A stretch of 64,000 nt of DNA from contig JALOKP010000009.1 in the NCBI GenBank assembly GCA_025456425.1, positions 13,388 to 77,387 on the forward strand, in the 5' to 3' direction. This document shows, piece by piece, positions 10,123 to 37,747 of this stretch. A model generated the notes under the pieces. It saw only the letters and a list, made by a program, of their open reading frames with translations. It was not told where the DNA came from and searched no databases. The position numbers were made by a program, and so were the translations under genes. Each line of letters starts with the position of its first letter. Within the stretch, counting starts at the first letter, position 1. Origin of the DNA: Acidobacteriota bacterium. Its GTDB lineage: Bacteria; Acidobacteriota; Polarisedimenticolia; J045.

Positions 10123-11478
10123 ATGCCGACTCGATCCGCTCGAACCCTGCTGGCCTTGTGCTGCGCCGTGATGCTCGCTCCCGGGGCGGCGGTCACGCTG
10201 GCCCAGCAGGGGGCATCCGCGCCGCCGCCGTCGCCGGCGCCTCCGGCCGCCGCGGCCGAGCCCGCGGAACCCCTGATCCCGCCGGACCAGCTCGATTCCC
10301 TCGTCGCCCCGATCGCGCTCTATCCCGACCCGCTGCTGGCCCAGACCCTGGTCGCCTCGACCTACCCGCTCGAGATCGTCCAGCTCCAGCAGTGGCTCGC
10401 GAAGAACCCGAACCTCAAGGACCAGGCGCTGGTGGACGCGGTCGCGAAGCAGCCCTGGGATCCCTCGATCCAGTCGATGGCGGCCGTGCCCGACGTCGTG
10501 AAGCGACTGGCCGATGACATCCAGTGGACGACCGAACTCGGTAACGCCTTCCTCGCGCAGCAGAGCGACGTCATGGACGCGGTCCAGCGGATGCGCAAGA
10601 AGGCCTCGGACAACGGCGCCCTGAAGTCGAACGAGCAGATGGTCGTCGAGACCAAGGTGGTCGAACAGAAGACGGTCATCGTCGTCGAGCCTGCGGACCC
10701 CCAGGTGGTCTACGTGCCGAGCTACAGCCCGACGGTCGTCTACGGGGCGGCCCCCTACTACCCGTACCCGCCGATCTACTACCCCCCTTACTACCCGGGC
10801 GGTGCACTCATCGGCTTCGGCGTCGGCCTGGCCTGGGGCGCGGCGTGGGGCGGCTCCTGTTGCGGCTGCGGCTGGGGCGGCGGGGACGTCGACATCAACA
10901 TCGACAACAACTTCAACCGCAACACGAACATCGACCGCGGCAACTCCGGCCGCGGTGACGCCGGTCGCGGCGGCTCCGGCAACAAGTGGAGCCACAACCC
11001 CCAGCATCGCGGCGGCGCCCCCTACTCGAACAAGGCAACGGCCAGCAAGTACGGCGGCCAGGCGCGCGGGAGCGGGCAGCGCTCGCCCGGTGCGACGACC
11101 GCGAACCGCGGCGGCGCCGGCGCGACGGGCGGCCGCGGCGGCTCGCCGAGCACCATGGATCGCAGTGCGGGGGGCGCCGGATCCCGCGGCGGCTCGCCGA
11201 GTACCGCGGACCGCAGTGCGGGAGGCGCGGGCTCCCGCGGCGGCTCGCCGAGCACCGCGGACCGCGGCGGCTCCTCGGCCAGCCGGGGCAGCAGCGCGAA
11301 CCAGGTCGGCAGCCGGAACGTCCCGTCGAGCGCCCGGCCCAGCAGCAGCGGGTACAGCGGCGGGTCGCGCGGCTACAGCGGCAGCAGCGCCCGCGCGAGC
11401 AGCTCGCGCGGGTCTGCCAGCATGGGCTCGCGCGGCGGAGGATCGAGAGGCGGTGGCGGCGGCGGGCGGCGGAGGTGA
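10123..11478 (+). CDS. DUF3300 domain protein with Gly/Ser/Arg-rich tail
   Basis: Motifs QLDSLVAPIALYPDPLLAQ, WDPSIQS, LGNAFLAQQSDVMDAVQRMR and VYVPSYSP; signal peptide. Confidence 0.92.
   Translation: MPTRSARTLLALCCAVMLAPGAAVTLAQQGASAPPPSPAPPAAAAEPAEPLIPPDQLDSLVAPIALYPDPLLAQTLVASTYPLEIVQLQQWLAKNPNLKDQALVDAVAKQPWDPSIQSMAAVPDVVKRLADDIQWTTELGNAFLAQQSDVMDAVQRMRKKASDNGALKSNEQMVVETKVVEQKTVIVVEPADPQVVYVPSYSPTVVYGAAPYYPYPPIYYPPYYPGGALIGFGVGLAWGAAWGGSCCGCGWGGGDVDINIDNNFNRNTNIDRGNSGRGDAGRGGSGNKWSHNPQHRGGAPYSNKATASKYGGQARGSGQRSPGATTANRGGAGATGGRGGSPSTMDRSAGGAGSRGGSPSTADRSAGGAGSRGGSPSTADRGGSSASRGSSANQVGSRNVPSSARPSSSGYSGGSRGYSGSSARASSSRGSASMGSRGGGSRGGGGGGRRR
11134..11265 (+). repeat. 51-bp coding tandem repeat (about 2.6 units, RGGSPSTxDRSAGGAGS) in the DUF3300 tail
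   Basis: Units start at 11134, 11185 and 11236. Confidence 0.8.
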
Positions 11479-11483
11479 CGGCG

Positions 11484-12437
11484 ATGAGACACGAATCGAC
11501 TGAACACACCATCTCTCGGCGCAGTGCCCGCGTCTTCCGTCCCGGGCTCTGCCTGCTCCTCGCCTGCCTGGTCCCGCTGGCCGGCGCGGCCATCAAGCAG
11601 CGCACCTTCGACACCCCCGAGAAGGCCGTCGAGGCCTTCATCGCCGCCTCCGAGCGCTACGACGTCGAGGCGCTGAAGACGATCCTCGGCGACGATGGCG
11701 TGGACATCGTGGTCTCGGAGGATGCGGTCCAGTCGAAAAACCAGGCCGTGGAGTTCGCCAAGGTGGCGCGCGAAAAGTCCGCGATCGAGATCGACCCGCT
11801 GGACCCGAACGTCGCCATCCTGTCGGTGGGGCCCGACGACTGGCCGCTGCCGATCCCGATCGTTCGGGAGGGCGGGAAGTGGCGCTTCGATACCGCGGCG
11901 GGACGCGAAGAGCTCCTGTTCCGGCGGATCGGGCAGAACGAGCTGGACGCGATCGAGATCTGCCTCGGGTACGTCGAAGCGCAGGAGGAGTACGCCCTCA
12001 CCAGGCACGACGGCTCACGGATCAACCAGTACGCCCAGCGCGTCGTGAGCACGCCCGGGAAGCGGGACGGGCTCGCCTGGCAGGACCCGGACGGGACGTG
12101 GCAGGGACCGGTCGGCGAAGCGATCGCGCGGATCATCGCCGAGGGCTACCCCGAGAAGCCCACACCGTTCCATGGCTACACCTTCAAGATCCTGAAGGGC
12201 CAGGGTCCCGCCGCCCCGCTGGGCGAGATGGACTTCATGGTGAACGGGGCGATGATCGGCGGCTTCGCGCTCGTCGCCGCACCGGCCGACTACGAGGTCA
12301 GCGGCGTGATGACCTTCATCGTGAGCCACGACGGCATCGTCTACCAGAAGGACCTCGGACCGAAGACGGCCGAAGCGTTCAAGGCGATGGACCGGTACAA
12401 CCCGGATGAGACCTGGAGCCCCGTGTTCGGGCAGTGA
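11484..12437 (+). CDS. DUF2950 domain protein
   Basis: Motifs FDTPEKAVEAF, DDWPLPIP, RRIGQNELDAI, PFHGYTFKIL, GGFALVA and GVMTFIVSHDG; usual partner of DUF3300. Confidence 0.92.
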   Translation: MRHESTEHTISRRSARVFRPGLCLLLACLVPLAGAAIKQRTFDTPEKAVEAFIAASERYDVEALKTILGDDGVDIVVSEDAVQSKNQAVEFAKVAREKSAIEIDPLDPNVAILSVGPDDWPLPIPIVREGGKWRFDTAAGREELLFRRIGQNELDAIEICLGYVEAQEEYALTRHDGSRINQYAQRVVSTPGKRDGLAWQDPDGTWQGPVGEAIARIIAEGYPEKPTPFHGYTFKILKGQGPAAPLGEMDFMVNGAMIGGFALVAAPADYEVSGVMTFIVSHDGIVYQKDLGPKTAEAFKAMDRYNPDETWSPVFGQ

Positions 12438-29353: not shown

Positions 29354-29498
29354 GATCGGTCTCCTATCGAGTGGGCAGTCTATCCGATCGCATCCGGGCC
29401 CAGCCGCCGCCCGGCCCCGCCGTCACGGACCCTCCCGCCCCCCGGGCGGCCGTGGAATAATGCTGCCCCTTCCAAGTGTAAGAAGAACGGGGGTCACG

Positions 29499-30347
29499 AT
29501 GCGGATCGGAATGCGGTCGGCCCTGGCGGCCGGCGGGGCGGGACGGAGGGGGCTGGCGATCGTCCTGGCCGGGTTCCTCGCGGTCATGCCTCCGGTCCCG
29601 GCCAGCGCGTCGCCGGTCGATGCGGCCGCGGCCGAGAGCTCGCTCTCGGACCCCTTCCCGTCGAGCCTCTATGTCGAGCGCGACGTCAAGGTGGCGGCGC
29701 GCCGCTCGGGCGTGATCGAGAAGGTGCTGGTCGACCGCGGGCAGTCGGTGCGCGCCGGCCAGGCGCTGGCCATGCTCGAGACCGACCTCGCGACGCACGA
29801 GGTCGAACTGGCGCAGGAAGAGCTGCGGCTCGCGGAGACCGAGCTGCAGCGCGTCGCGCCGCTGGCCTCGTCGGGGATCGTCTCGCAGCAGGAGCTGCAG
29901 CAGAAGCAGATCGACCGCGACCTGGCGAAGACGCGGCTCGCCCGCGAGAAGGCGATGCTCGACCGCTGCACGGTGCAGGCGCCGTTCGCCGGCGTGGTCG
30001 CGGAGCGCTGGGCGGTTCTCGGCGAGCGGGTCCAGGAGGATGACAACACGCCGCTGTTCCGCGTCGTCGCCTCCGGGCCGCTGCGGGCGCGCGTCGACCT
30101 GCCGGAGGCGATGCTGGCCCGCGTCGCGGTGGGCGGCCGGGCGGCAGTCACGCTCGACCGCGATCCGGGCACGGTCCACTCCGCACGGGTGGTCTTCGTC
30201 AGCCCATCGGTCGACGCGGCCAGCGGGACCGCGCCGGTGATCGTCGAGCTGCCGGCGGCCGGTCCCGCGCTGCGCCCCGGCTCGGCGGTGACGGTGCGGC
30301 TGGCGCTGGGTACGGGCACGGCGGCTGGGGGGCGGAGCGGGCGATGA
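29499..30347 (+). CDS. Membrane fusion protein (HlyD/RND periplasmic adaptor)
   Basis: VAARRSGVIEKVLVDRGQSVRAGQALAML, helical hairpin, VQAPFAGVV, VSPSVDAASGT. Confidence 0.88.
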   Translation: MRIGMRSALAAGGAGRRGLAIVLAGFLAVMPPVPASASPVDAAAAESSLSDPFPSSLYVERDVKVAARRSGVIEKVLVDRGQSVRAGQALAMLETDLATHEVELAQEELRLAETELQRVAPLASSGIVSQQELQQKQIDRDLAKTRLAREKAMLDRCTVQAPFAGVVAERWAVLGERVQEDDNTPLFRVVASGPLRARVDLPEAMLARVAVGGRAAVTLDRDPGTVHSARVVFVSPSVDAASGTAPVIVELPAAGPALRPGSAVTVRLALGTGTAAGGRSGR

Positions 30348-31048
30348 GCCCGCGCCTCGCGGCGCGCAGCGGGGCGCGGCGCCGGCCGCCGGCAGCCCAC
30401 GCGGCCCCGAACCTGCTGGTCCACGAGCTGAAGCACCTCGCGGGCCGGCTGCAGTTGCTGAACGAGAACCTGGCCGGCCACTTCGGCGACCCCGCTTTCC
30501 GGGCAAGCGCGTGGGAGCTGCTCGACGACACCGTCCGCCAGTTGCGCCGCCTCGCCGCGGAGATGCACGAGCGCGAGGGCCGGCTGATGGTCAAGCTGCG
30601 CGTCGACCTCAACGAAATCCTCGACGACGCGCTGGCCTCCTGCCACCCCGACCTCGCGGGGGCGGTCGAGCTGGAAGAACGCCTGACCGAGCTGCCGCCG
30701 ATCTGGGGCGATCGGTTCCTGCTGCGCCGGGCCTTCTCCTGCACGATCGAGAACGCGCTCGAGGCCATGGCGGGGCGCGGGACGCTGCTCGTCGCGTCGG
30801 GCGTCGTGCGGCGCGGCGGGCGGTCGCGTCTGCTGGTCGAGTTCATCGACGACGGGCCCGGGATGTCGGCCGAGTTCAAGCGCCGGCTGCTGACCCGGCA
30901 GTTCGCGAGCGGCAAGGCCGACGGGCTCGGGCTGGGGGTTTACACGGTGCGGCAGGTCGTCGCGCTGCACGGCGGGACCGTCCGGATCACGAGCGCCCCG
31001 GGTGCCGGGACCGAGGTCCGCTTCTACTTTCCCGTGGACGAGGAGTGA
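30344..31048 (+). CDS. Soluble histidine kinase core (PrsK-like DHp + HATPase) without sensor domain
   Basis: H-box VHELKHL, N-box IENALEA, DDGPGMS, GLGLG; ATGA overlap with the MFP gene. Confidence 0.8.
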   Translation: MSPRLAARSGARRRPPAAHAAPNLLVHELKHLAGRLQLLNENLAGHFGDPAFRASAWELLDDTVRQLRRLAAEMHEREGRLMVKLRVDLNEILDDALASCHPDLAGAVELEERLTELPPIWGDRFLLRRAFSCTIENALEAMAGRGTLLVASGVVRRGGRSRLLVEFIDDGPGMSAEFKRRLLTRQFASGKADGLGLGVYTVRQVVALHGGTVRITSAPGAGTEVRFYFPVDEE

Positions 31049-31051
31049 CGG

Positions 31052-32425
31052 GTGCCCGGGTCGCGCACCTTGCTGCTCGTGGTCGAGGACGACCGCCTGC
31101 ACGCCGACCAGCTGCGGTGGGCGCTCGGCGAGCACTACGCCCTGCAGTTCGCGGCCGACCGCGACTCCGGGGTCGCTGCGCTGGCCGAATCCGCACCCGA
31201 CCTCGTGCTGCTGGACCTGTGCATGCCGCCGGAGATGTCCCCCGAGGCCGGGCTCGCGGTCCTGCGCGCGGTCCGCGCGCGGGATCCCGACACGCCGGTC
31301 GTCGTGATGTCCGCGCTGGAGGAGCGCGAGCCGGCGCTGCGCGCGGTCGAGCAGGGGGCCTGGGACTTCTTCACCAAGCCGATCGACGTCGCGGCGCTGA
31401 AGGTCGTTTTCTCGCGGGCGCTCGAGCGGCAGGCGCTGGCCCGCGAGAACCGGCGCCTGCGGGCCGACCTCGAGCAGCGCTTCCAGGTCGAGGGGATCGT
31501 CGGCGCCTCGCCGGCGATGGTCCGCGTCCTGGAGGCGATCCGGCGGGTCGCGGACAGCCCGGTCACGGTCACGATCGAGGGGGAAAGCGGGACCGGCAAG
31601 GAACTCGTGGCGCGCGCGATCCACTACTCGGGGGCGCGGCGCAACGGGCCGTTCGTGGCGGTGCACTGCGCGGCGCTGCCCGACTCGCTGGTCGAGTCGG
31701 AGCTGTTCGGTCACGAGAAGGGGGCCTTCACCGGCGCCGACGCGCCGCGCGTCGGACGCTTCGAGGCAGCGCGCGGCGGAACGCTCTTCCTGGACGAGAT
31801 CGCGACGCTGCCGCCGGCCGTGCAGGTCAAGCTGCTGCGCGTGCTCGAGGAGCGTGCCGTCGTCCGGCTCGGCTCGAACGAGCTGCGGCCGGTCGACATC
31901 CGGCTGGTCGTCGCCACCAACGAGAGCCTCGAGGCCCGCGTCGCGCGAAAGGAGTTCCGCGAGGACCTGCTCTTCCGGATCCGAGGCTTCCCGATCCTGG
32001 TCCCCCCGCTGCGCGAACGGCGCGAGGACATCCCGCTGCTGGCCGAGCACTTCCTGCGCACCGCCTGCGAGCGCGACGGACGGCCCGCCAAGCACCTCGA
32101 CCCCGAGGCGCGGCGCGAGCTGACGGCCCGGCGCTGGCCCGGGAACGTCCGCGAGCTGCTGCACGCGATGGAGAACCTGGCGCTCACGGTGGACCGGGAG
32201 ACGGTGCGGCCGGAGGACCTGCCTCCGCCCCCGGAATCGCTGCCGCCGCTGGGGGCGATGAACGAAGCACCGTCCGACTTCAGGACGGCCGTCCTGCGCT
32301 TCGAGCGCCAGCTGCTCGAGGGGGCGATCGCCCGCGAGGGCGGCGTGAAGGCCCGGGCCGCCCGGGCGCTCGGGCTCGATCCGGCCCAGATGAAGTACCT
32401 GGTCCGGAAGCACGGGCTGAAGTAG
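31052..32425 (+). CDS. Sigma-54-dependent response regulator (NtrC family, PrsR-like)
   Basis: REC domain ([16 protein letters not shown]), [31 protein letters not shown], Fis-type HTH. Confidence 0.95.
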
Positions 32426-32446
32426 GCGTCGGAGCGGCCGCCGAGT

Positions 32447-32486
32447 GGGTGAATTTTTCACCCTCTCCTGGATGAAGAATTACCCC
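32447..32486 (+). promoter_or_regulatory. Candidate upstream activator sites for a sigma-54 enhancer-binding protein
   Basis: Dyad GGGTGAA-TTT-TTCACCC (32447-32463) plus a degenerate copy GGATGAAGAATTACCCC (32470-32486), about 100-135 bp upstream of the -24/-12 box. Confidence 0.55.
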
Positions 32487-32582
32487 TGGCCTCGTACAAA
32501 CTAGTATTCAATGTCGCTTCTGCGGGATGTCATCTATATTAAAATGAACGACTTAACGGTCCGAGAAGCCTAGCGCGCGGGA

Positions 32583-32598
32583 TGGCACGCGGCGTGCA
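32583..32598 (+). promoter_or_regulatory. Sigma-54 (-24/-12) promoter
   Basis: TGGCAC-GCGGC-GTGCA with GG at 32584 and GC at 32596 (correct spacing); AT-rich tract upstream; adjacent sigma-54 activator gene. Confidence 0.8.
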
Positions 32599-32638
32599 TA
32601 TTGGTCTGCGTCCACCAGATGGGACGGGAGACCAGACG

Positions 32639-33196
32639 ATGAGCAAGCCCAAGAGCGTGACGATCAAGTTGACCGAGAAGCAGCGCACCCAGATCAAGTC
32701 CGCCACCGGCGTCGACCACTCCGAGATCCGCGTCGAGTCGTTCGACGGGAAGGTCGGGAACGAACTCGCCGCCAAGACCCCGCTCCGCGCCAAGTCCCCG
32801 CTCGCGGGCAAGAGCGCGCTGGCCAAGAAGAACCCGCTGGCCGCCAAGAGCGCGCTGGCCAGGAAGAACCCGCTCGCCGCCAAGAGCGCGCTGGCCAAGA
32901 AGAACCCGCTCGCTTCCAAGGCCGCTCTGGCCTCGAAGAGCGCCCTCGCCTCCAAGTCGGCGCTGGCCTCCAAGAGCGCCCTCGCTTCGAAGAGCGCCCT
33001 CGCCTCCAAGTCGGCGCTGGCCTCCAAGTCGGCCCTGGCCTCCAAGAGCGCCCTGGCCTCCAAGAGCGCCCTGGCCTCCAAGAGCGCACTCGCCTCCAAG
33101 TCGGCGCTGGCTTCCAAGAGCGCCCTCGCTTCGAAGAGCGCCCTCGCCTCCAAGTCGGCGCTGGCTTCCAAGAGCGCCCTTCGGAAGTCCTTCTAG
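32639..33196 (+). CDS. Leader + hexapeptide-repeat protein (185 aa; (SALASK)n), putative exported precursor
   Basis: GGGAG RBS. A 40-aa unique N-terminus is followed by 10 degenerate hexads, 13 perfect SALASK units and SALRKSF. Synonymous codon variation fits this reading frame. Confidence 0.88.
   Translation: MSKPKSVTIKLTEKQRTQIKSATGVDHSEIRVESFDGKVGNELAAKTPLRAKSPLAGKSALAKKNPLAAKSALARKNPLAAKSALAKKNPLASKAALASKSALASKSALASKSALASKSALASKSALASKSALASKSALASKSALASKSALASKSALASKSALASKSALASKSALASKSALRKSF
32759..33190 (+). repeat. 18-bp coding tandem repeat array (about 24 units)
   Basis: Units such as AGCGCCCTCGCCTCCAAG and TCGGCGCTGGCCTCCAAG; perfect SALASK block at 32939-33172. Confidence 0.95.
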
Positions 33197-33216
33197 TCCG
33201 GGCGATCGCTCGAGAT

Positions 33217-33253
33217 GGAACGCGGCGGCCACCGGCCGCCGCGTTCCTTTTTT
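33217..33253 (+). terminator. Rho-independent terminator of the repeat-protein gene
   Basis: 14-bp stem GGAACGCGGCGGCC / GGCCGCCGCGTTCC with ACC loop, followed by TTTTTT. Confidence 0.9.
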
Positions 33254-33269
33254 CCGGCGCCACCGCGCC

Positions 33270-35375
33270 CTACCAGACCACGGTCGAGATCCAGCGCGAG
33301 AAGCTCCACCAGAGCTGGCCCAGCGCGCTGCGGGACGGCCCCGAGAACTGCACGGCGCCGCTCATCCCCGGACGCAGCTGCTCGCCGGGATTGTCGACCT
33401 CGACCAGGACGCGCACCTGTCGGGCCCGCCGCACCAGGTCGAGGTGGGCGCCGCCCCCTTCCGGATCGACCGCCACCGGCGCGACGTCCCGGACGGTGGC
33501 GCGCAGGGTGCGGCCGGGCAGCGACTCGGCGCGGATCCGTGCCGGCGCGCCCACCCGGACCTCCTCGATGTCCCGCTCCGAGAGCCGGGCCGCCAGTCGA
33601 GCCCGCGCCAGGCCGTCGATCACGCAGACCGTCTCTCCTTCCGCGAGCTGGCGGCCCGCCATCTCCTCGACGCGGTAGGTCGACACGATCCCGGCGATCG
33701 GCGCGGCCAGGACCAGCCGGCCCTGCCGCGCTTCGAGCATGGCCAGCCGGCTCTCCGCCGCCCGCGCCAGCTCGCGCGCCGCCGCCTCGGAGGCCGCATC
33801 CCGCGCGTCGCGCGCGCGGGAGGCCTCGCGCAGCGCGCGCACCCGGGCCGACTCCGCCGCGGCCCGGTCGGCTTCCAGCTCGGGGCTGGCCAGCCGCGCC
33901 AGCTCGGCCCCCACGGCGACGCGGTCCCCCTCGCGCACGGCGACCGAGGTGACGAGCGCGTCCGACGGGACCCGCACCACGGCCCGCTCGGCCGGCTCGA
34001 CGACGAAGGGCCCGGTGATCCGCGTCGGCAGCGGCACGAGCAGCAGCGCCGCGGCCAGCAGCACCACCGCGATCGCCACGCTCGCCTTTCCCTGGGCCGT
34101 CGCCAGCCACTCGCGCTTGTCGAGCCAGAGGTGGCGCACGAACCGGCCGAAGGCCTTGAGCTTGCTGCGCAGCAACCAGTAGAAGAACAGCCCCAGCGCG
34201 ATGTAGCCGGCGGGGCCGAGCCAGCCGACGAACCAGCGTTCCAGGAAGTGGTAGATCACCGCGATCATCAGCACCATGTAGAGAACCGCGGCGACGCCGT
34301 AGACCAGGTAGATCCGCCGCCGGCGGCGCGAGATCGCATGCTCGGGTACCTCGAGCCGCAGCACGTGCTTCTTGAACAGGCCGCCGATGTACTCGAAGCT
34401 CTCCTCCCGCAGGTTCGGCACGTCGAGCCAGTCCATCAGCAGGTAGTAGCCGTCGAGCTTGAGCAGCGGGTTGACGTTCAGCACGATCACCGAGAGGCCC
34501 GTGAAGAAGACGAGGGTCAGCGCCAGATCGTGAACCCACGACTCGGCCGGCGTGGCAAGCCAGACTACCGTGGCCACCGACGCGAGCATCAGCTCGAAGT
34601 AGGGCCCCCCGAAGGTCGAATAGAGACGGTGCGACTGCTTCTCGAACAGGTACGAGTCGTCGATGTTGCAGTAGAAGGCGGGCTGGAAGTAGAAGATCAT
34701 GAAACCGATGTCGTGCACCTCGCCGCCGAAGCGCTTGCAGGTGAAGCCGTGGCCGAACTCGTGCCAGATGCTGACCCCGGCCAGCAGCGCGAAGAACCCG
34801 ACCCAGCCCCAGGCGGTCTTCTCCTTGAAGTTCCAGAGCTCGAAGAAGCCGCTCCAGTACAGGTCCCAGTGATAGACCAGGAAACCGAGCATCACGGCGA
34901 AGATCGCCATCCACGGCAGCACGAACCAGGGGGACCAGACCCAGCGGATCCAGGGAATGACCCGGTCCATGATCGCGTTGGGGTCGAACAGCGGGATGTG
35001 GACCTGGAAGATCGTCGAGCGCTCGGCGTCGTAGAATCGCCGCTTCCGCATCGTCTTCAGCTTGTCCATCATCACCAGGTGCCGCTCGCGTTCGCCGCGC
35101 TCGAGCAGGTCCAGCCCCTTCAGCGCCTCGAGGTAGTCCTGCACGAAGGCCTCGGTCAGCGGCCGCTGGGGGTTCTTCGCGCTGAACTCGCGCGCGATCT
35201 CCTCGGGCGTGCGCGAGCCGTCGATCAGCGCCAGCAGGTCGTCCTCCCACGGCTCGAACTTGAAGAACTTCTGCGTCGCGCCGTCCTTGACGATGACGTA
35301 GTCCTCCTCGCGGGTCGCGAGGCGGCGGTAGACGACACCCGGCTTCAGGCGCGGCCGCGCTGCGGCGGGGTTCAC
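33270..35375 (-). CDS. PqqD/RRE-like domain + M50 (site-2-protease-like) membrane peptidase + HlyD-type MFP fusion
   Basis: N-terminal YVIVKDGATQKFFKFEPWEDDLLALIDGSRTPEEI, WHEFGH, NVNPLLKLDG, C-terminal VAVREGDRVAVG...LAAPIAGIV. GTGA overlap with the upstream gene. Confidence 0.88.
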   Translation of the reverse strand: MNPAAARPRLKPGVVYRRLATREEDYVIVKDGATQKFFKFEPWEDDLLALIDGSRTPEEIAREFSAKNPQRPLTEAFVQDYLEALKGLDLLERGERERHLVMMDKLKTMRKRRFYDAERSTIFQVHIPLFDPNAIMDRVIPWIRWVWSPWFVLPWMAIFAVMLGFLVYHWDLYWSGFFELWNFKEKTAWGWVGFFALLAGVSIWHEFGHGFTCKRFGGEVHDIGFMIFYFQPAFYCNIDDSYLFEKQSHRLYSTFGGPYFELMLASVATVVWLATPAESWVHDLALTLVFFTGLSVIVLNVNPLLKLDGYYLLMDWLDVPNLREESFEYIGGLFKKHVLRLEVPEHAISRRRRRIYLVYGVAAVLYMVLMIAVIYHFLERWFVGWLGPAGYIALGLFFYWLLRSKLKAFGRFVRHLWLDKREWLATAQGKASVAIAVVLLAAALLLVPLPTRITGPFVVEPAERAVVRVPSDALVTSVAVREGDRVAVGAELARLASPELEADRAAAESARVRALREASRARDARDAASEAAARELARAAESRLAMLEARQGRLVLAAPIAGIVSTYRVEEMAGRQLAEGETVCVIDGLARARLAARLSERDIEEVRVGAPARIRAESLPGRTLRATVRDVAPVAVDPEGGGAHLDLVRRARQVRVLVEVDNPGEQLRPGMSGAVQFSGPSRSALGQLWWSFSRWISTVVW

Positions 35376-37747
35376 GGCAGCCAGCCCCAGATCGCGTTCC
35401 ACGCCCAGCGGGCGGGGCGACGGAACAGCACGCGCCCCAGGCTCGCGCGCCCGCTGTCGATCTTGGCCCGGCCGGTCATGCCCGAGCGCAGCCCCTCCGG
35501 CTGCCCGTCGAGGCGGGCCCGGACCGTGAAGACCCGGCCGGCGTCGGCGTCGTCGGTCGCGACCACGCCGACCTGCTCCACCGCGGCCCGGACGCGCGTC
35601 GTCGGGAGCGCGTAGAGCCGGACCTTCACCGGCATCCCCGGCGCCACCAGTCCGGCGTCGCGCTCCGGGACCAGGACCTCGATCTCCTGGCGGTCGATCT
35701 GGACGATGTCGCAGAAGACCTCGCCGCGCGCCAGCTTGAGCCCGGCCCGGTCCTCGATCCGGGGGGTCGCGACGACGCCGGACGCACGGGCGCGGATCCG
35801 CATCCGTGCCAGGTCGGTCTCCCAGCGCTCGACCTCGGCGGCGAGGCCGGCCAGCCGTGCCGCCTCCGCGGACGCCCCCGCTGCGTCCGCCTCGGCGCGG
35901 CGCGCGGCCAGCGCGCGCTCGGCGATCGCGCGGCGAGCGCGGGCCTCGGCCAGGCCGGCCTGGATCTCGACGTCGTCGAGGCGCGCGAGTTCCTGGCCGG
36001 CCTCGACCGCGTCCCCCTCGCGGACCAGGACCTCGACCACCCGCCCGCCGGTCTCGGCCGCGGCCGGCACGCGACGCTCGGGCAGGACGCGGGCATCCCC
36101 CGCGATCCGCAGCGGAACCGGCAGGAACAGCAGCGCAAGGGCTGCCAGCGCCGCGCCCGCCAGCCAGGTCGCCCGCGCCCGGCCGAGCTTCTCCAGCCGC
36201 GCGGTGGTCCGCGCCAGCGGCTGCATCACCTGCCGCATCGGCATCTGGTCGAACAGCGCCGCGTTGCGCAGCGCGACCGTGGCCTGCGCGCCGAGCAGCT
36301 GCGCGGCCTCGATGTCGCGCGCCGAGAAGGCGTACGCCGCGGCCGACTCGAGGACCCAGGTCCCGAGCCGTCCCGCTTCGTCGGCCAGCGGCACGGCCAG
36401 GAAGCTGCGCATCCCGCTGCGCTCGAAGTAGGCCCGGAACTTCTCCCGCGTCTCGGGGCGGTCGCTGTCGATCGTCCCGTCGTCCTCCTGGACCACGTAG
36501 AGCCCCTCCTCCAGCCCGGCGGTCCACTCCAGCAGCCCCTTCAGCTCCTTCATCTCGGCCAGCGACTCGTCGACGAAGGTCTGGCCGCTGACGGCGGCGA
36601 TCTCGAAGCGGCTGCCGCGCCGCACCCCGACCGCCGAGCGCTCGAAGGAGAGCAGCTCGGCCGGCCGGTGCACCAGCGTGAAGGCCACCTTCTTCGCGTC
36701 GAGCTGGGAGGTGAGTTCCTGCGACACGCCGAGCAGCTCTCCCAGGTCCGCCGCGCGGCGCTCGGCGTCGAGTCGCCGCGCGTTGACGAGCGCGATCGCC
36801 GCGGTGGCGGCGATCTCCTGCAGGAAGGTCAGGTCGTCGCCGTCCAGCGGGTCGCCGTTGGCGCGGTTGACGACCTCGATCGCCCCCACGGCGTCGCCCT
36901 CGGCGGTGACGATCGGGACGCAGGCGGCGCTCGCGATCTCGAGCCCGGCGTCGACGTCGGGACGCGCCTCGAGGTCCGGGACCGCCTCGGCCTCGCCTGC
37001 GAGCATCGGTTCGCCGGCAGCCAGCGCCGCCCCGACCAGCCCTTCCGCGGCGGGCAGTTCCCAGCCGGCGACGATCTCCGCCGCGGTCCCGGCCGCGGCC
37101 GCGACGCCGACCGACTCGCGGTCGGCGCCGAGCAGCCAGAGATAGGCCTGCTCGACGTCGAGCGCGGCCTGCACGCGGTTGACGATCACGCCGGTCAGGT
37201 CGCCCAGCTCGACCGTCGCCGCGAACGAGCGCCCGATGTCGTAGAGCCGGGAGAGGCGCTCGATCACCTCGATCATGTCCTGCTGCGCGCGGTCGCGCTC
37301 GCGGACCGCGGCCAGCGCCGATTCGGCGGCACCCAGCGGCTCGGCCGCGGAGGCGGCGTCGGCGGTCGCGTAGGCCCCGTCGGCGCGACCGCGCTCGAGC
37401 AGCTCGATCACGCCGAACGGACGGCCCGAGGCCCGCAGCGGCAGCACCAGCCGGGAGCGGAAGCCGGCGTCGTCCGCCGCCACCGCGACCGGGGCGTCGA
37501 ACGCCATCGCGCGTGCCGCGGCGTCGGGCGGCTCGTCGCCGGCGGCGCGCGCCTCCGCCGGCCAGGCACCGGCGAACCGAAACCCGCGGTGCCGGTCGAA
37601 AACGAAGACCCGGACGCTTTCGGCACCCAGCAGCGCCCCGACTGCCCGCGCCAGGGCCCCCGCGGCCTGCGCCTCCCCGGATGCCCGCGCCAGTTCTCCC
37701 GCGAGCCGCCAGACCGACCGGGTGTCACCTCCCGGACTGCCCATCAC
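35372..37747 (-). CDS. Triple GAF domain + TM + HlyD-type MFP fusion
   Basis: Three GAF-like segments (LVLPLRASGRPFGVIEL; CVPIVTAEGDAVGAIEVVN; FLAVPLADEAGRLGTW), a TM, and VLVREGDAVEAGQELARL...IRARASGVV...GMTG. Confidence 0.88.
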   Translation of the reverse strand: MMGSPGGDTRSVWRLAGELARASGEAQAAGALARAVGALLGAESVRVFVFDRHRGFRFAGAWPAEARAAGDEPPDAAARAMAFDAPVAVAADDAGFRSRLVLPLRASGRPFGVIELLERGRADGAYATADAASAAEPLGAAESALAAVRERDRAQQDMIEVIERLSRLYDIGRSFAATVELGDLTGVIVNRVQAALDVEQAYLWLLGADRESVGVAAAAGTAAEIVAGWELPAAEGLVGAALAAGEPMLAGEAEAVPDLEARPDVDAGLEIASAACVPIVTAEGDAVGAIEVVNRANGDPLDGDDLTFLQEIAATAAIALVNARRLDAERRAADLGELLGVSQELTSQLDAKKVAFTLVHRPAELLSFERSAVGVRRGSRFEIAAVSGQTFVDESLAEMKELKGLLEWTAGLEEGLYVVQEDDGTIDSDRPETREKFRAYFERSGMRSFLAVPLADEAGRLGTWVLESAAAYAFSARDIEAAQLLGAQATVALRNAALFDQMPMRQVMQPLARTTARLEKLGRARATWLAGAALAALALLFLPVPLRIAGDARVLPERRVPAAAETGGRVVEVLVREGDAVEAGQELARLDDVEIQAGLAEARARRAIAERALAARRAEADAAGASAEAARLAGLAAEVERWETDLARMRIRARASGVVATPRIEDRAGLKLARGEVFCDIVQIDRQEIEVLVPERDAGLVAPGMPVKVRLYALPTTRVRAAVEQVGVVATDDADAGRVFTVRARLDGQPEGLRSGMTGRAKIDSGRASLGRVLFRRPARWAWNAIWGWLP

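Follow-up and report, generated by a model that had tools for sequence, protein, structure and literature searches.

Within a 64,000-nucleotide stretch of an Acidobacteriota genome (GenBank assembly GCA_025456425.1, contig JALOKP010000009.1, positions 13,388 to 77,387 of the forward strand; hereafter the window), we found that a small 558-bp repeat gene very probably forms an enhancer-dependent, regulator-specific and monocistronic sigma-54 transcription unit, as judged from its DNA elements and their conservation. The 185-aa product is a precursor-like protein made of a 35-residue leader and a low-complexity repeat tail. That both halves of the picture hold together, with the unit as described and its product a leader-dependent processed or exported peptide, we rate as somewhat better than an even chance. 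The elements of the predicted unit and the parts of its gene are as follows.

32447-32463, unstranded: upstream activating sequence 1 (UAS1), a perfect 7+7 dyad GGGTGAATTTTTCACCC (GGGTGAA-TTT-TTCACCC) read in the sequence, centre about -154 from the predicted start
32470-32486, unstranded: UAS2, GGATGAAGAATTACCCC, with 3 mismatches, centre about -131, 23 bp from UAS1 centre to centre
32487-32582, unstranded: AT-rich spacer, GC 0.41-0.51, holding an IHF-like site
32543-32555, inside the spacer: IHF-like site AATGAACGACTTA, 1 mismatch to WATCAANNNNTTR, centre about -60
32583-32598, plus strand: sigma-54 -24/-12 promoter TGGCACGCGGCGTGCA (TGGCAC-N5-GTGCA), GG-N10-GC spacing, 1 mismatch to TGGCAC-N5-TTGCW
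32626-32631, plus strand: ribosome-binding site (RBS) GGGAGA, 7 nt ahead of the ATG at 32639
32639-33196, plus strand: small open reading frame (ORF), 558 bp, 185 aa, stop codon 33194-33196
32639..32743, plus strand: leader domain, residues 1-35 (MSKPKSVTIKLTEKQRTQIKSATGVDHSEIRVESF), conserved across the phylum
32774..33187, plus strand: 23 hexapeptide units that pass from KxPLxx into 13 x KSALAS, followed by SF and the stop codon
33217-33253, plus strand: intrinsic terminator with a 14-bp stem (12 G-C; 33217-33247), a 3-nt loop and T6

An earlier note on this DNA, made from its letters, had claimed a dyad UAS, a degenerate second site, an AT-rich spacer in a genome of more than 70% GC and a correctly spaced -24/-12 box, and all four were borne out. 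UAS1 begins 21 nt past the stop of the upstream ORF (31052-32425), which ends at 32425, and the GC fraction drops to 0.41 over 32450-32549, compared with 0.70-0.80 in both flanks and 72.9% in the genome as a whole. Within the window, TGGCACGCGGCGTGCA is the sole match to TGGCAC-N5-TTGCW with no more than one mismatch, and it predicts a transcription start near 32608-32609. The RBS and the strong intrinsic terminator of that note are likewise in place; the terminator hairpin folds with a free energy of -42.9 kcal/mol (z = -4.96), and 0/200 shuffled sequences were equally stable. The convergent gene has its stop codon at 33270, with the terminator hairpin lying 23 bp short of it, so the unit encloses one gene, as had been proposed. 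The T-run of the hairpin (window 33217-33272) is on the plus strand only, and the minus-strand operon would meet the hairpin without a U-tract.

Conservation carries much of the argument. Using the N-terminal 60 residues of the product, we found relatives in the same genus, family, class and phylum, in metagenome-assembled genomes (MAGs) of uncultured Acidobacteriota; promoters were compared in 21 related loci and the wider gene order was judged in 10. A single layout (NtrC-type regulator, then dyads, then GG-N10-GC promoter, then small gene) is common to 21/21 loci, with the C-terminal helix-turn-helix (HTH) of the regulator directly upstream of the small gene in 18. The promoter box shows 0-1 mismatch in 19/21 loci and 2 mismatches in the other 2/21, and its distance to the start codon is 32-63 nt in 20/21, with about 140 nt in the remaining one (L057). 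In every locus the stretch from the regulator stop to the box contains paired 17-bp dyads of GGnyGAw-N3-wTCrACC type, about 20-23 bp apart and centred at roughly -85 to -160 (automatic dyad scan and inspection by eye). The identical GGGTGAATTTTTCACCC is present in a locus of another family (L046), and the UAS2 right arm, TTACCC, recurs in two distant lineages (L048 and L050), so the "degenerate" second site is a conserved variant and not noise. Relatives also have a second site at the UAS2 offset. In the genus alignment, the only invariant islands are UAS1 and the GGCAC...TGCA promoter, while the spacer drifts. Changes in the dyad arms are uncompensated, as in GGCTGAT/TTCACCC (G003) and GGTCGAA/TTATCCC (G046), favouring a protein-binding site over an RNA hairpin. 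A GGAG-type RBS occupies the equivalent position in relatives, and terminator-like hairpins follow most of the orthologous genes read, in a tally made by eye only.

Two of the loci carry more than one small gene. Locus L027 (G106:C3 ~1321400-1322500) has two tandem precursor genes with decapeptide repeats, KSAPRGVVPG and KAAPRGIVAG, each with paired dyads and a sigma-54 box to itself. At L018 (5450-6290, minus strand, G022), two small ORFs lie behind a perfect TGGCACGGAGGTTGCT; the first is without the VTIxLT leader, and a C-terminal core (EDLESRDAPKIAGGGLDDGSLS.GGGKP) is common to it and to the leader-bearing second ORF.

The regulator is the last gene of an upstream operon, and two further genes converge on the small gene from the other side.

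29499..30347, plus strand: HlyD-type membrane-fusion protein (MFP) carrying a signal or anchor at its N-terminus (Pfam HlyD_D23 1.4e-24, HlyD_3); syntenic in relatives
30344..31048, plus strand: sensor-less histidine kinase core, 234 aa, DHp and HATPase only (HATPase_c 2.1e-17)
31052..32425, plus strand: NtrC-family response regulator and sigma-54 activator, with REC (Response_reg 1.5e-19), Sigma54_activat 3e-66 and HTH_8 1.4e-6
33270..35375, minus strand: 701-aa fusion of an RRE-like domain (RRE, recognition element of ribosomally synthesised and post-translationally modified peptides, or RiPPs), an M50 intramembrane protease and an HlyD-type MFP (Pfam M50, HlyD; HlyD/MFP C-terminal)
35372..37747, minus strand: GAF-domain protein fused to an HlyD-type MFP (GAF 5.3e-25, HlyD_D23 5.5e-16), first gene of the convergent operon; syntenic

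The first MFP gene opens the regulator operon, and its stop overlaps the kinase start (ATGA). The earlier note had placed the activator directly upstream of the small gene, and its domains agree with that assignment: the predicted protein has the full NtrC-type set of REC, Sigma54_activat and HTH_8, with a Walker A motif (GESGTGKE), a GAFTGA loop and a C-terminal Fis-type HTH, and the order of regulator, paired dyads, -24/-12 box and small gene is kept in every relative examined across the phylum. A single rpoN gene is present in the genome (Sigma54_DBD 202.8 bits in contig C157, 501-aa open frame), along with about 30 sigma-54-type AAA+ genes, 20 of which encode a GAFTGA-like loop. A genome scan for the exact dyad, which the note had suggested for defining the regulon, returned one occurrence in this genome and one in a relative (G002), both at this locus; looser matches were no commoner than a reversed-pattern control except in G003, and none of those in this genome was accompanied by a sigma-54 box at its contig position. 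With the exact dyad present only once, the regulator looks dedicated to one promoter. The DNA ahead of the GAF-MFP gene showed no sigma-54 box. Ahead of the first MFP gene, TGGAATAATGCTGC (window 29450-29470) was considered as a sigma-54 box and rejected, its GG-N9-GC spacing being one that should not work.

For the spacer, an IHF-like site at the matching offset and strand was found in G058 (perfect) and G046 (1 mismatch), and not in 11 other loci. The genome has four HU/IHF-family genes, some closest to IHF-beta, with the IHF-beta-like scores lying below the cut-off and obtained on partial sequences. These matches are no more than suggestive of IHF use at the spacer. High inducibility and abundance of the product, which the earlier note had also put forward, would be expected from the promoter class.

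The small gene is under protein-level selection on the plus strand. None of the six frames is interrupted across the repeat region. The DNA of the 13 identical KSALAS units comes in 7 versions, which differ only by changes synonymous in the plus frame, AGC/TCG serine switches among them. Leader differences between relatives are concentrated at third codon positions; in G003 they number 1, 0 and 7 at positions 1, 2 and 3. The conserved leader reads KSVTIKLTxKQRxQIKxxTGxxHxEIRVE. Pfam and NCBIfam searches with the product returned no family, a word-indexed protein search with the leader returned no match, and a search of the genome for paralogues returned none, only low-complexity noise. One such low-complexity match to the repeat is a long Lys/Ala/Val-rich (AVKKAVAVKK...), histone-H1-like open frame on contig C34 of the same genome (~11070-11670, minus strand).

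A leader profile run against 1.84 billion representative proteins gave 214 clusters at E<=1e-3, with members nearly all 50-190 aa long and the motif at residue 1. Behind this leader, the tail differs by lineage: units of 6 residues (SALASK, AGLASK, VSPAKR, AAKGLK), 5 (GGRTP), 9 (AGKSIAGRA), 10 (KAAPRGIVAG, MAKKAAPKQI) or 12 (ERANPLSVGIEA) occur, and some members end in short tails of 20-30 residues without repeats. From lineage to lineage one repeat gives way completely to another while the leader is kept, and among close strains (L036 6001-6471; window 32774-33187; L037; L038) the number of hexapeptides varies, giving proteins of 157, 185, 192 and 210 aa, so the hexapeptide array appears to expand and contract quickly. 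AlphaFold2 (AF2) models the leader as a strand (5-10), a helix (13-23) and a strand (29-34), with block-mean pLDDT (predicted local distance difference test) of 80-94 for residues 1-30 and 68 for residues 31-40; the repeat region has a pLDDT of about 40. A left-handed beta-helix was considered as a general reading of the repeats, as LASKSA fits the [LIV]-[GAED]-x2-[STAV]-x rule; it was rejected because AF2 gives a low-confidence helix (pLDDT ~40) and because relatives use units of 5, 9, 10 and 12 residues.

Several of the sequences found depart from the usual form. In G001 (L022 / L039), the orthologue runs out of frame in the middle of the repeat, from AKAAAKMP... to GEGRWPRPPP... and back to ...RGKRF, probably through a long-read indel error in the MAG or decay of the copy; P0018 is an intact (AKAAAKLP)n version of this repeat type. 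Four proteins of about 185 aa (P0084, P0090, P0102, P0119) are membrane proteins with two tandem leader-like motifs (VTIQLTDKQ..IK.ATG) between hydrophobic helices. Three giants, P0005 (2163 aa), P0006 (6596 aa) and P0052 (3346 aa), match leader-profile positions 3-24, 10 to 33 times each, and these matches could be a leader-related repeat module or a compositional artefact.

The convergent genes bear on what becomes of the product. The M50 fusion has HExxH (HEFGH) and NPLLKLDG motifs and aligns to the NCBIfam profile daptide_HExxH at 1e-58 over profile positions 13-377 of 379, although its 199 bits stay under the cut-off of 300. Daptide leader peptides are acted on by a fusion of RRE and site-2 protease, which is a marker of clusters whose small ORFs share a conserved motif at the N-terminus (bioRxiv 10.1101/2023.03.08.531785). 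M50 proteases also take off the leaders of other RiPP classes, and EpeP is believed both to cut and to export (PMC10885120). The small ORFs of the cassette have the conserved leader and hypervariable core of RiPP-type precursors. All 10 loci read at this scale show the same synteny, with an HlyD-type MFP, kinase, regulator and small gene facing the M50-HlyD and GAF-HlyD genes. No conserved extra partner (pump or TolC) was found in the flanks, where the genes differ between lineages. Together with the gene content of the cassette, these lineage-specific flanks point to a self-contained module, for which we infer export.

Several observations weigh against this combined reading. The -12 element reads GTGCA rather than TTGCA. 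A promoter match with at most one mismatch is expected 0.44 times per 64-kb window by chance, the background in the genome is about 62 such matches per 8.6 Mb of both strands (~1.4e-3 per 200 nt), and perfect 7-N3-7 dyads number 30 in the window, making a lone dyad not rare by chance; for that reason we rejected dyad rarity as support, and UAS1 is the only one of the 30 with GC below 65%. The assembly is 85% complete, so further copies of the operator could be missing. The IHF-like site occurs in about 3-4/14 relatives, several of which have GC-rich spacers. The N-terminal 100 aa of the M50 fusion found their best PDB match, a weak one, in the lasso-peptide RRE TbiB1 (E = 0.014, residues 24-93), and the N-terminus matched Pfam PaaA-like_N weakly (E = 0.13). 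The cassette holds three MFPs, a kinase, a regulator and a precursor only, with none of the modification enzymes of RiPP clusters; scans of cassette and flanking ORFs found no modifying enzyme, ABC or RND pump or outer-membrane channel in the cassette. As the lone motifs are not significant, the weight of the regulatory reading rests on their ordered combination and on its conservation in 21/21 related loci.

Three other explanations of the same DNA were weighed. The promoter and activator may be real and the product a Lys/Ala-rich protein of low complexity that stays inside the cell, such as a histone-H1-like stress protein or one that binds polyanions, with a small folded module at its N-terminus in place of a leader. 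The predicted compact strand-helix-strand N-terminus would suit such a protein, as would the missing pump and outer-membrane channel, and the Lys/Ala/Pro-rich repeats of many members (AAKGLK, KKVMAKKAVA, MAKKAAPKQI, VSPAKR) resemble H1-like tails. However, the repeats of some members are acidic or neutral (ERANPLSVGIEA, GGRTP) and other members end in short tails without repeats, which fits a variable core better than one shared physical role, and the strict synteny with a fusion of RRE-like domain, M50 protease and MFP also speaks against an intracellular role. We regard this explanation as unlikely, though one to be taken seriously.

The other two concern the unit itself. The dyads could be an RNA hairpin that terminates the regulator operon, with the small gene expressed by read-through or from an unrecognised sigma-70-type promoter: the perfect dyad 21 nt past the regulator stop could form a 7-bp hairpin, and AT-rich intergenic DNA can hide non-consensus promoters. 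Yet no T-run follows the dyad, the arm changes in G003 and G046 leave sequence and not pairing conserved, there are always two sites about 20-23 bp apart, a search of 31000-34500 found no sigma-70-like promoter, and the -24/-12 box is present in 21/21 loci; we consider this explanation very improbable. It is barely credible that the true gene is a long antisense ORF on the minus strand (32570-33232, 32539-33171 or 32694-33263) or a non-coding RNA, with the plus-strand ORF an artefact of GC-rich repeats. Six frames are indeed open across the repeat and the plus-strand protein has no Pfam or NCBIfam match, but the repeat units differ only by changes that are synonymous in the plus frame, the leader is conserved as protein with third-position drift while repeats are swapped outright between lineages, the RBS, promoter and terminator all face the plus strand, and an Rfam scan of 32300-33400 gave nothing above threshold, only noise below it.

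The sigma-54 unit resembles several known systems and differs from each. In the NtrC-glnAp2 class, a GG-N10-GC promoter is served by a REC-AAA+-HTH_8 activator from two 17-bp (7-N3-7) dyads 100-160 bp upstream. Promoter type, activator architecture, paired dyads, an AT-rich or bent spacer and an activator gene adjoining its target are common to that class and this locus. By contrast, the operator here is GGnyGAw-N3-wTCrACC, not of the NtrC type, with dyads 23 bp apart, the kinase is without a sensor domain, its translation coupled to that of a membrane-fusion protein, and the target is one small precursor-like gene rather than metabolic genes. PspF-pspA pairs a sigma-54 activator with essentially one promoter, two upstream sites and an IHF site, driving a strongly inducible, small envelope-related protein. 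The activator here likewise appears to serve essentially one promoter with two upstream sites, although PspF is without a receiver domain and PspA is a coiled-coil protein unrelated to the product here. Autoinduced bacteriocin or lantibiotic loci of the nisin (NisRK) type use OmpR/LytTR-type regulators, sigma-70 promoters and membrane kinases that sense the peptide. Like them, this locus has two-component genes beside a leader-bearing peptide gene and processing or export genes, with one dedicated promoter; unlike them, its activator is a sigma-54 AAA+ protein and its kinase soluble.

The best-scoring named relatives of the kinase core and regulator are PrsK and PrsR, the PEP-CTERM/exosortase pair (TIGR02916, TIGR02915). 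The regulator scores 422.1 bits against PrsR (PEP_resp_reg), below the 502.6 cut-off, and the kinase aligns to the C-terminal 200 aa of PrsK at 99.9 bits against a cut-off of 300 and lacks its long N-terminal membrane and GAF part. No PEP-CTERM or exosortase genes were seen among the cassette and flanking ORFs scanned. With the daptide leader peptidase (NF041824), the M50 fusion has in common a near-full profile alignment, the HExxH/NPLLKLDG motifs, a candidate RRE-like N-terminus and a position adjoining small ORFs in which an N-terminal motif is conserved and the C-terminal part varies. It differs in scoring below the family cut-off and in its extra C-terminal HlyD/MFP domain. Daptide clusters further differ from this cassette, which has no aminotransferase, dehydrogenase, methyltransferase or ABC transporter, whose precursor is without the ELExMEAP motif and C-terminal Thr and ends in ...RKSF, and whose host is a Gram-negative acidobacterium using sigma-54 control.

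We propose the following course of events. Sigma-54 RNA polymerase would form a closed complex on TGGCAC-N5-GTGCA (32583-32598), and the upstream-encoded NtrC-type regulator would bind, as dimers, the two 17-bp dyads near -154 and -131. Once phosphorylated by the sensor-less kinase of its own operon, the regulator may oligomerise and contact the polymerase across the AT-rich, probably bent spacer, possibly with help from IHF or HU, and open the promoter by ATP hydrolysis through its GAFTGA loop. Transcription would start near 32608-32609, cover the 185-aa ORF alone and stop at the hairpin (33217-33253), giving an RNA of ~645 nt. The convergent RRE-M50 protease-MFP protein would most likely recognise the leader through its RRE-like domain, cut it off and pass the repeat part out of the cytoplasm. 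Regulator binding and phosphorylation, DNA looping, the part played by IHF, inducibility, cleavage and export, and what the signal is, are all inferred in this scheme.

As a promoter the unit is of a common kind, but the gene family and the six-gene cassette are new. Our literature search found no description of the cassette and no sigma-54-controlled leader peptide gene. With so textbook a promoter architecture, the regulatory claim itself is unsurprising, and the promoter is valuable because it gives access to an unknown system. Through it the true start, strand and frame can be assigned for a low-complexity gene with six open frames and without a Pfam or NCBIfam family. The promoter also offers a portable assay, in which the regulator and a 200-bp promoter fragment are placed in a laboratory host with and without rpoN, and the operator type GGnyGAw-N3-wTCrACC, common across families, is a motif for finding more cassettes.

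Acidobacteriota have few genetic model organisms. The six-gene cassette, which is conserved and occurs across this phylum, has the small gene as its one regulated output. Tentatively, and with more doubt than confidence, we suggest that the cassette may be a self-contained, possibly self-inducing peptide system with the sigma-54 unit as its output stage. The soluble kinase, coupled to periplasmic or GAF-bearing MFPs, would respond to the exported peptide or to how export is proceeding, and phosphorylation of the dedicated activator would set off a burst of expression of the leader-tagged tandem-repeat precursor. The RRE-M50-MFP machine would cut and release that precursor without an ABC or RND pump, and the hypervariable units, 5 to 12 residues long, differing by lineage and, between strains, in copy number, would be the functional, possibly multi-copy peptide cargo.

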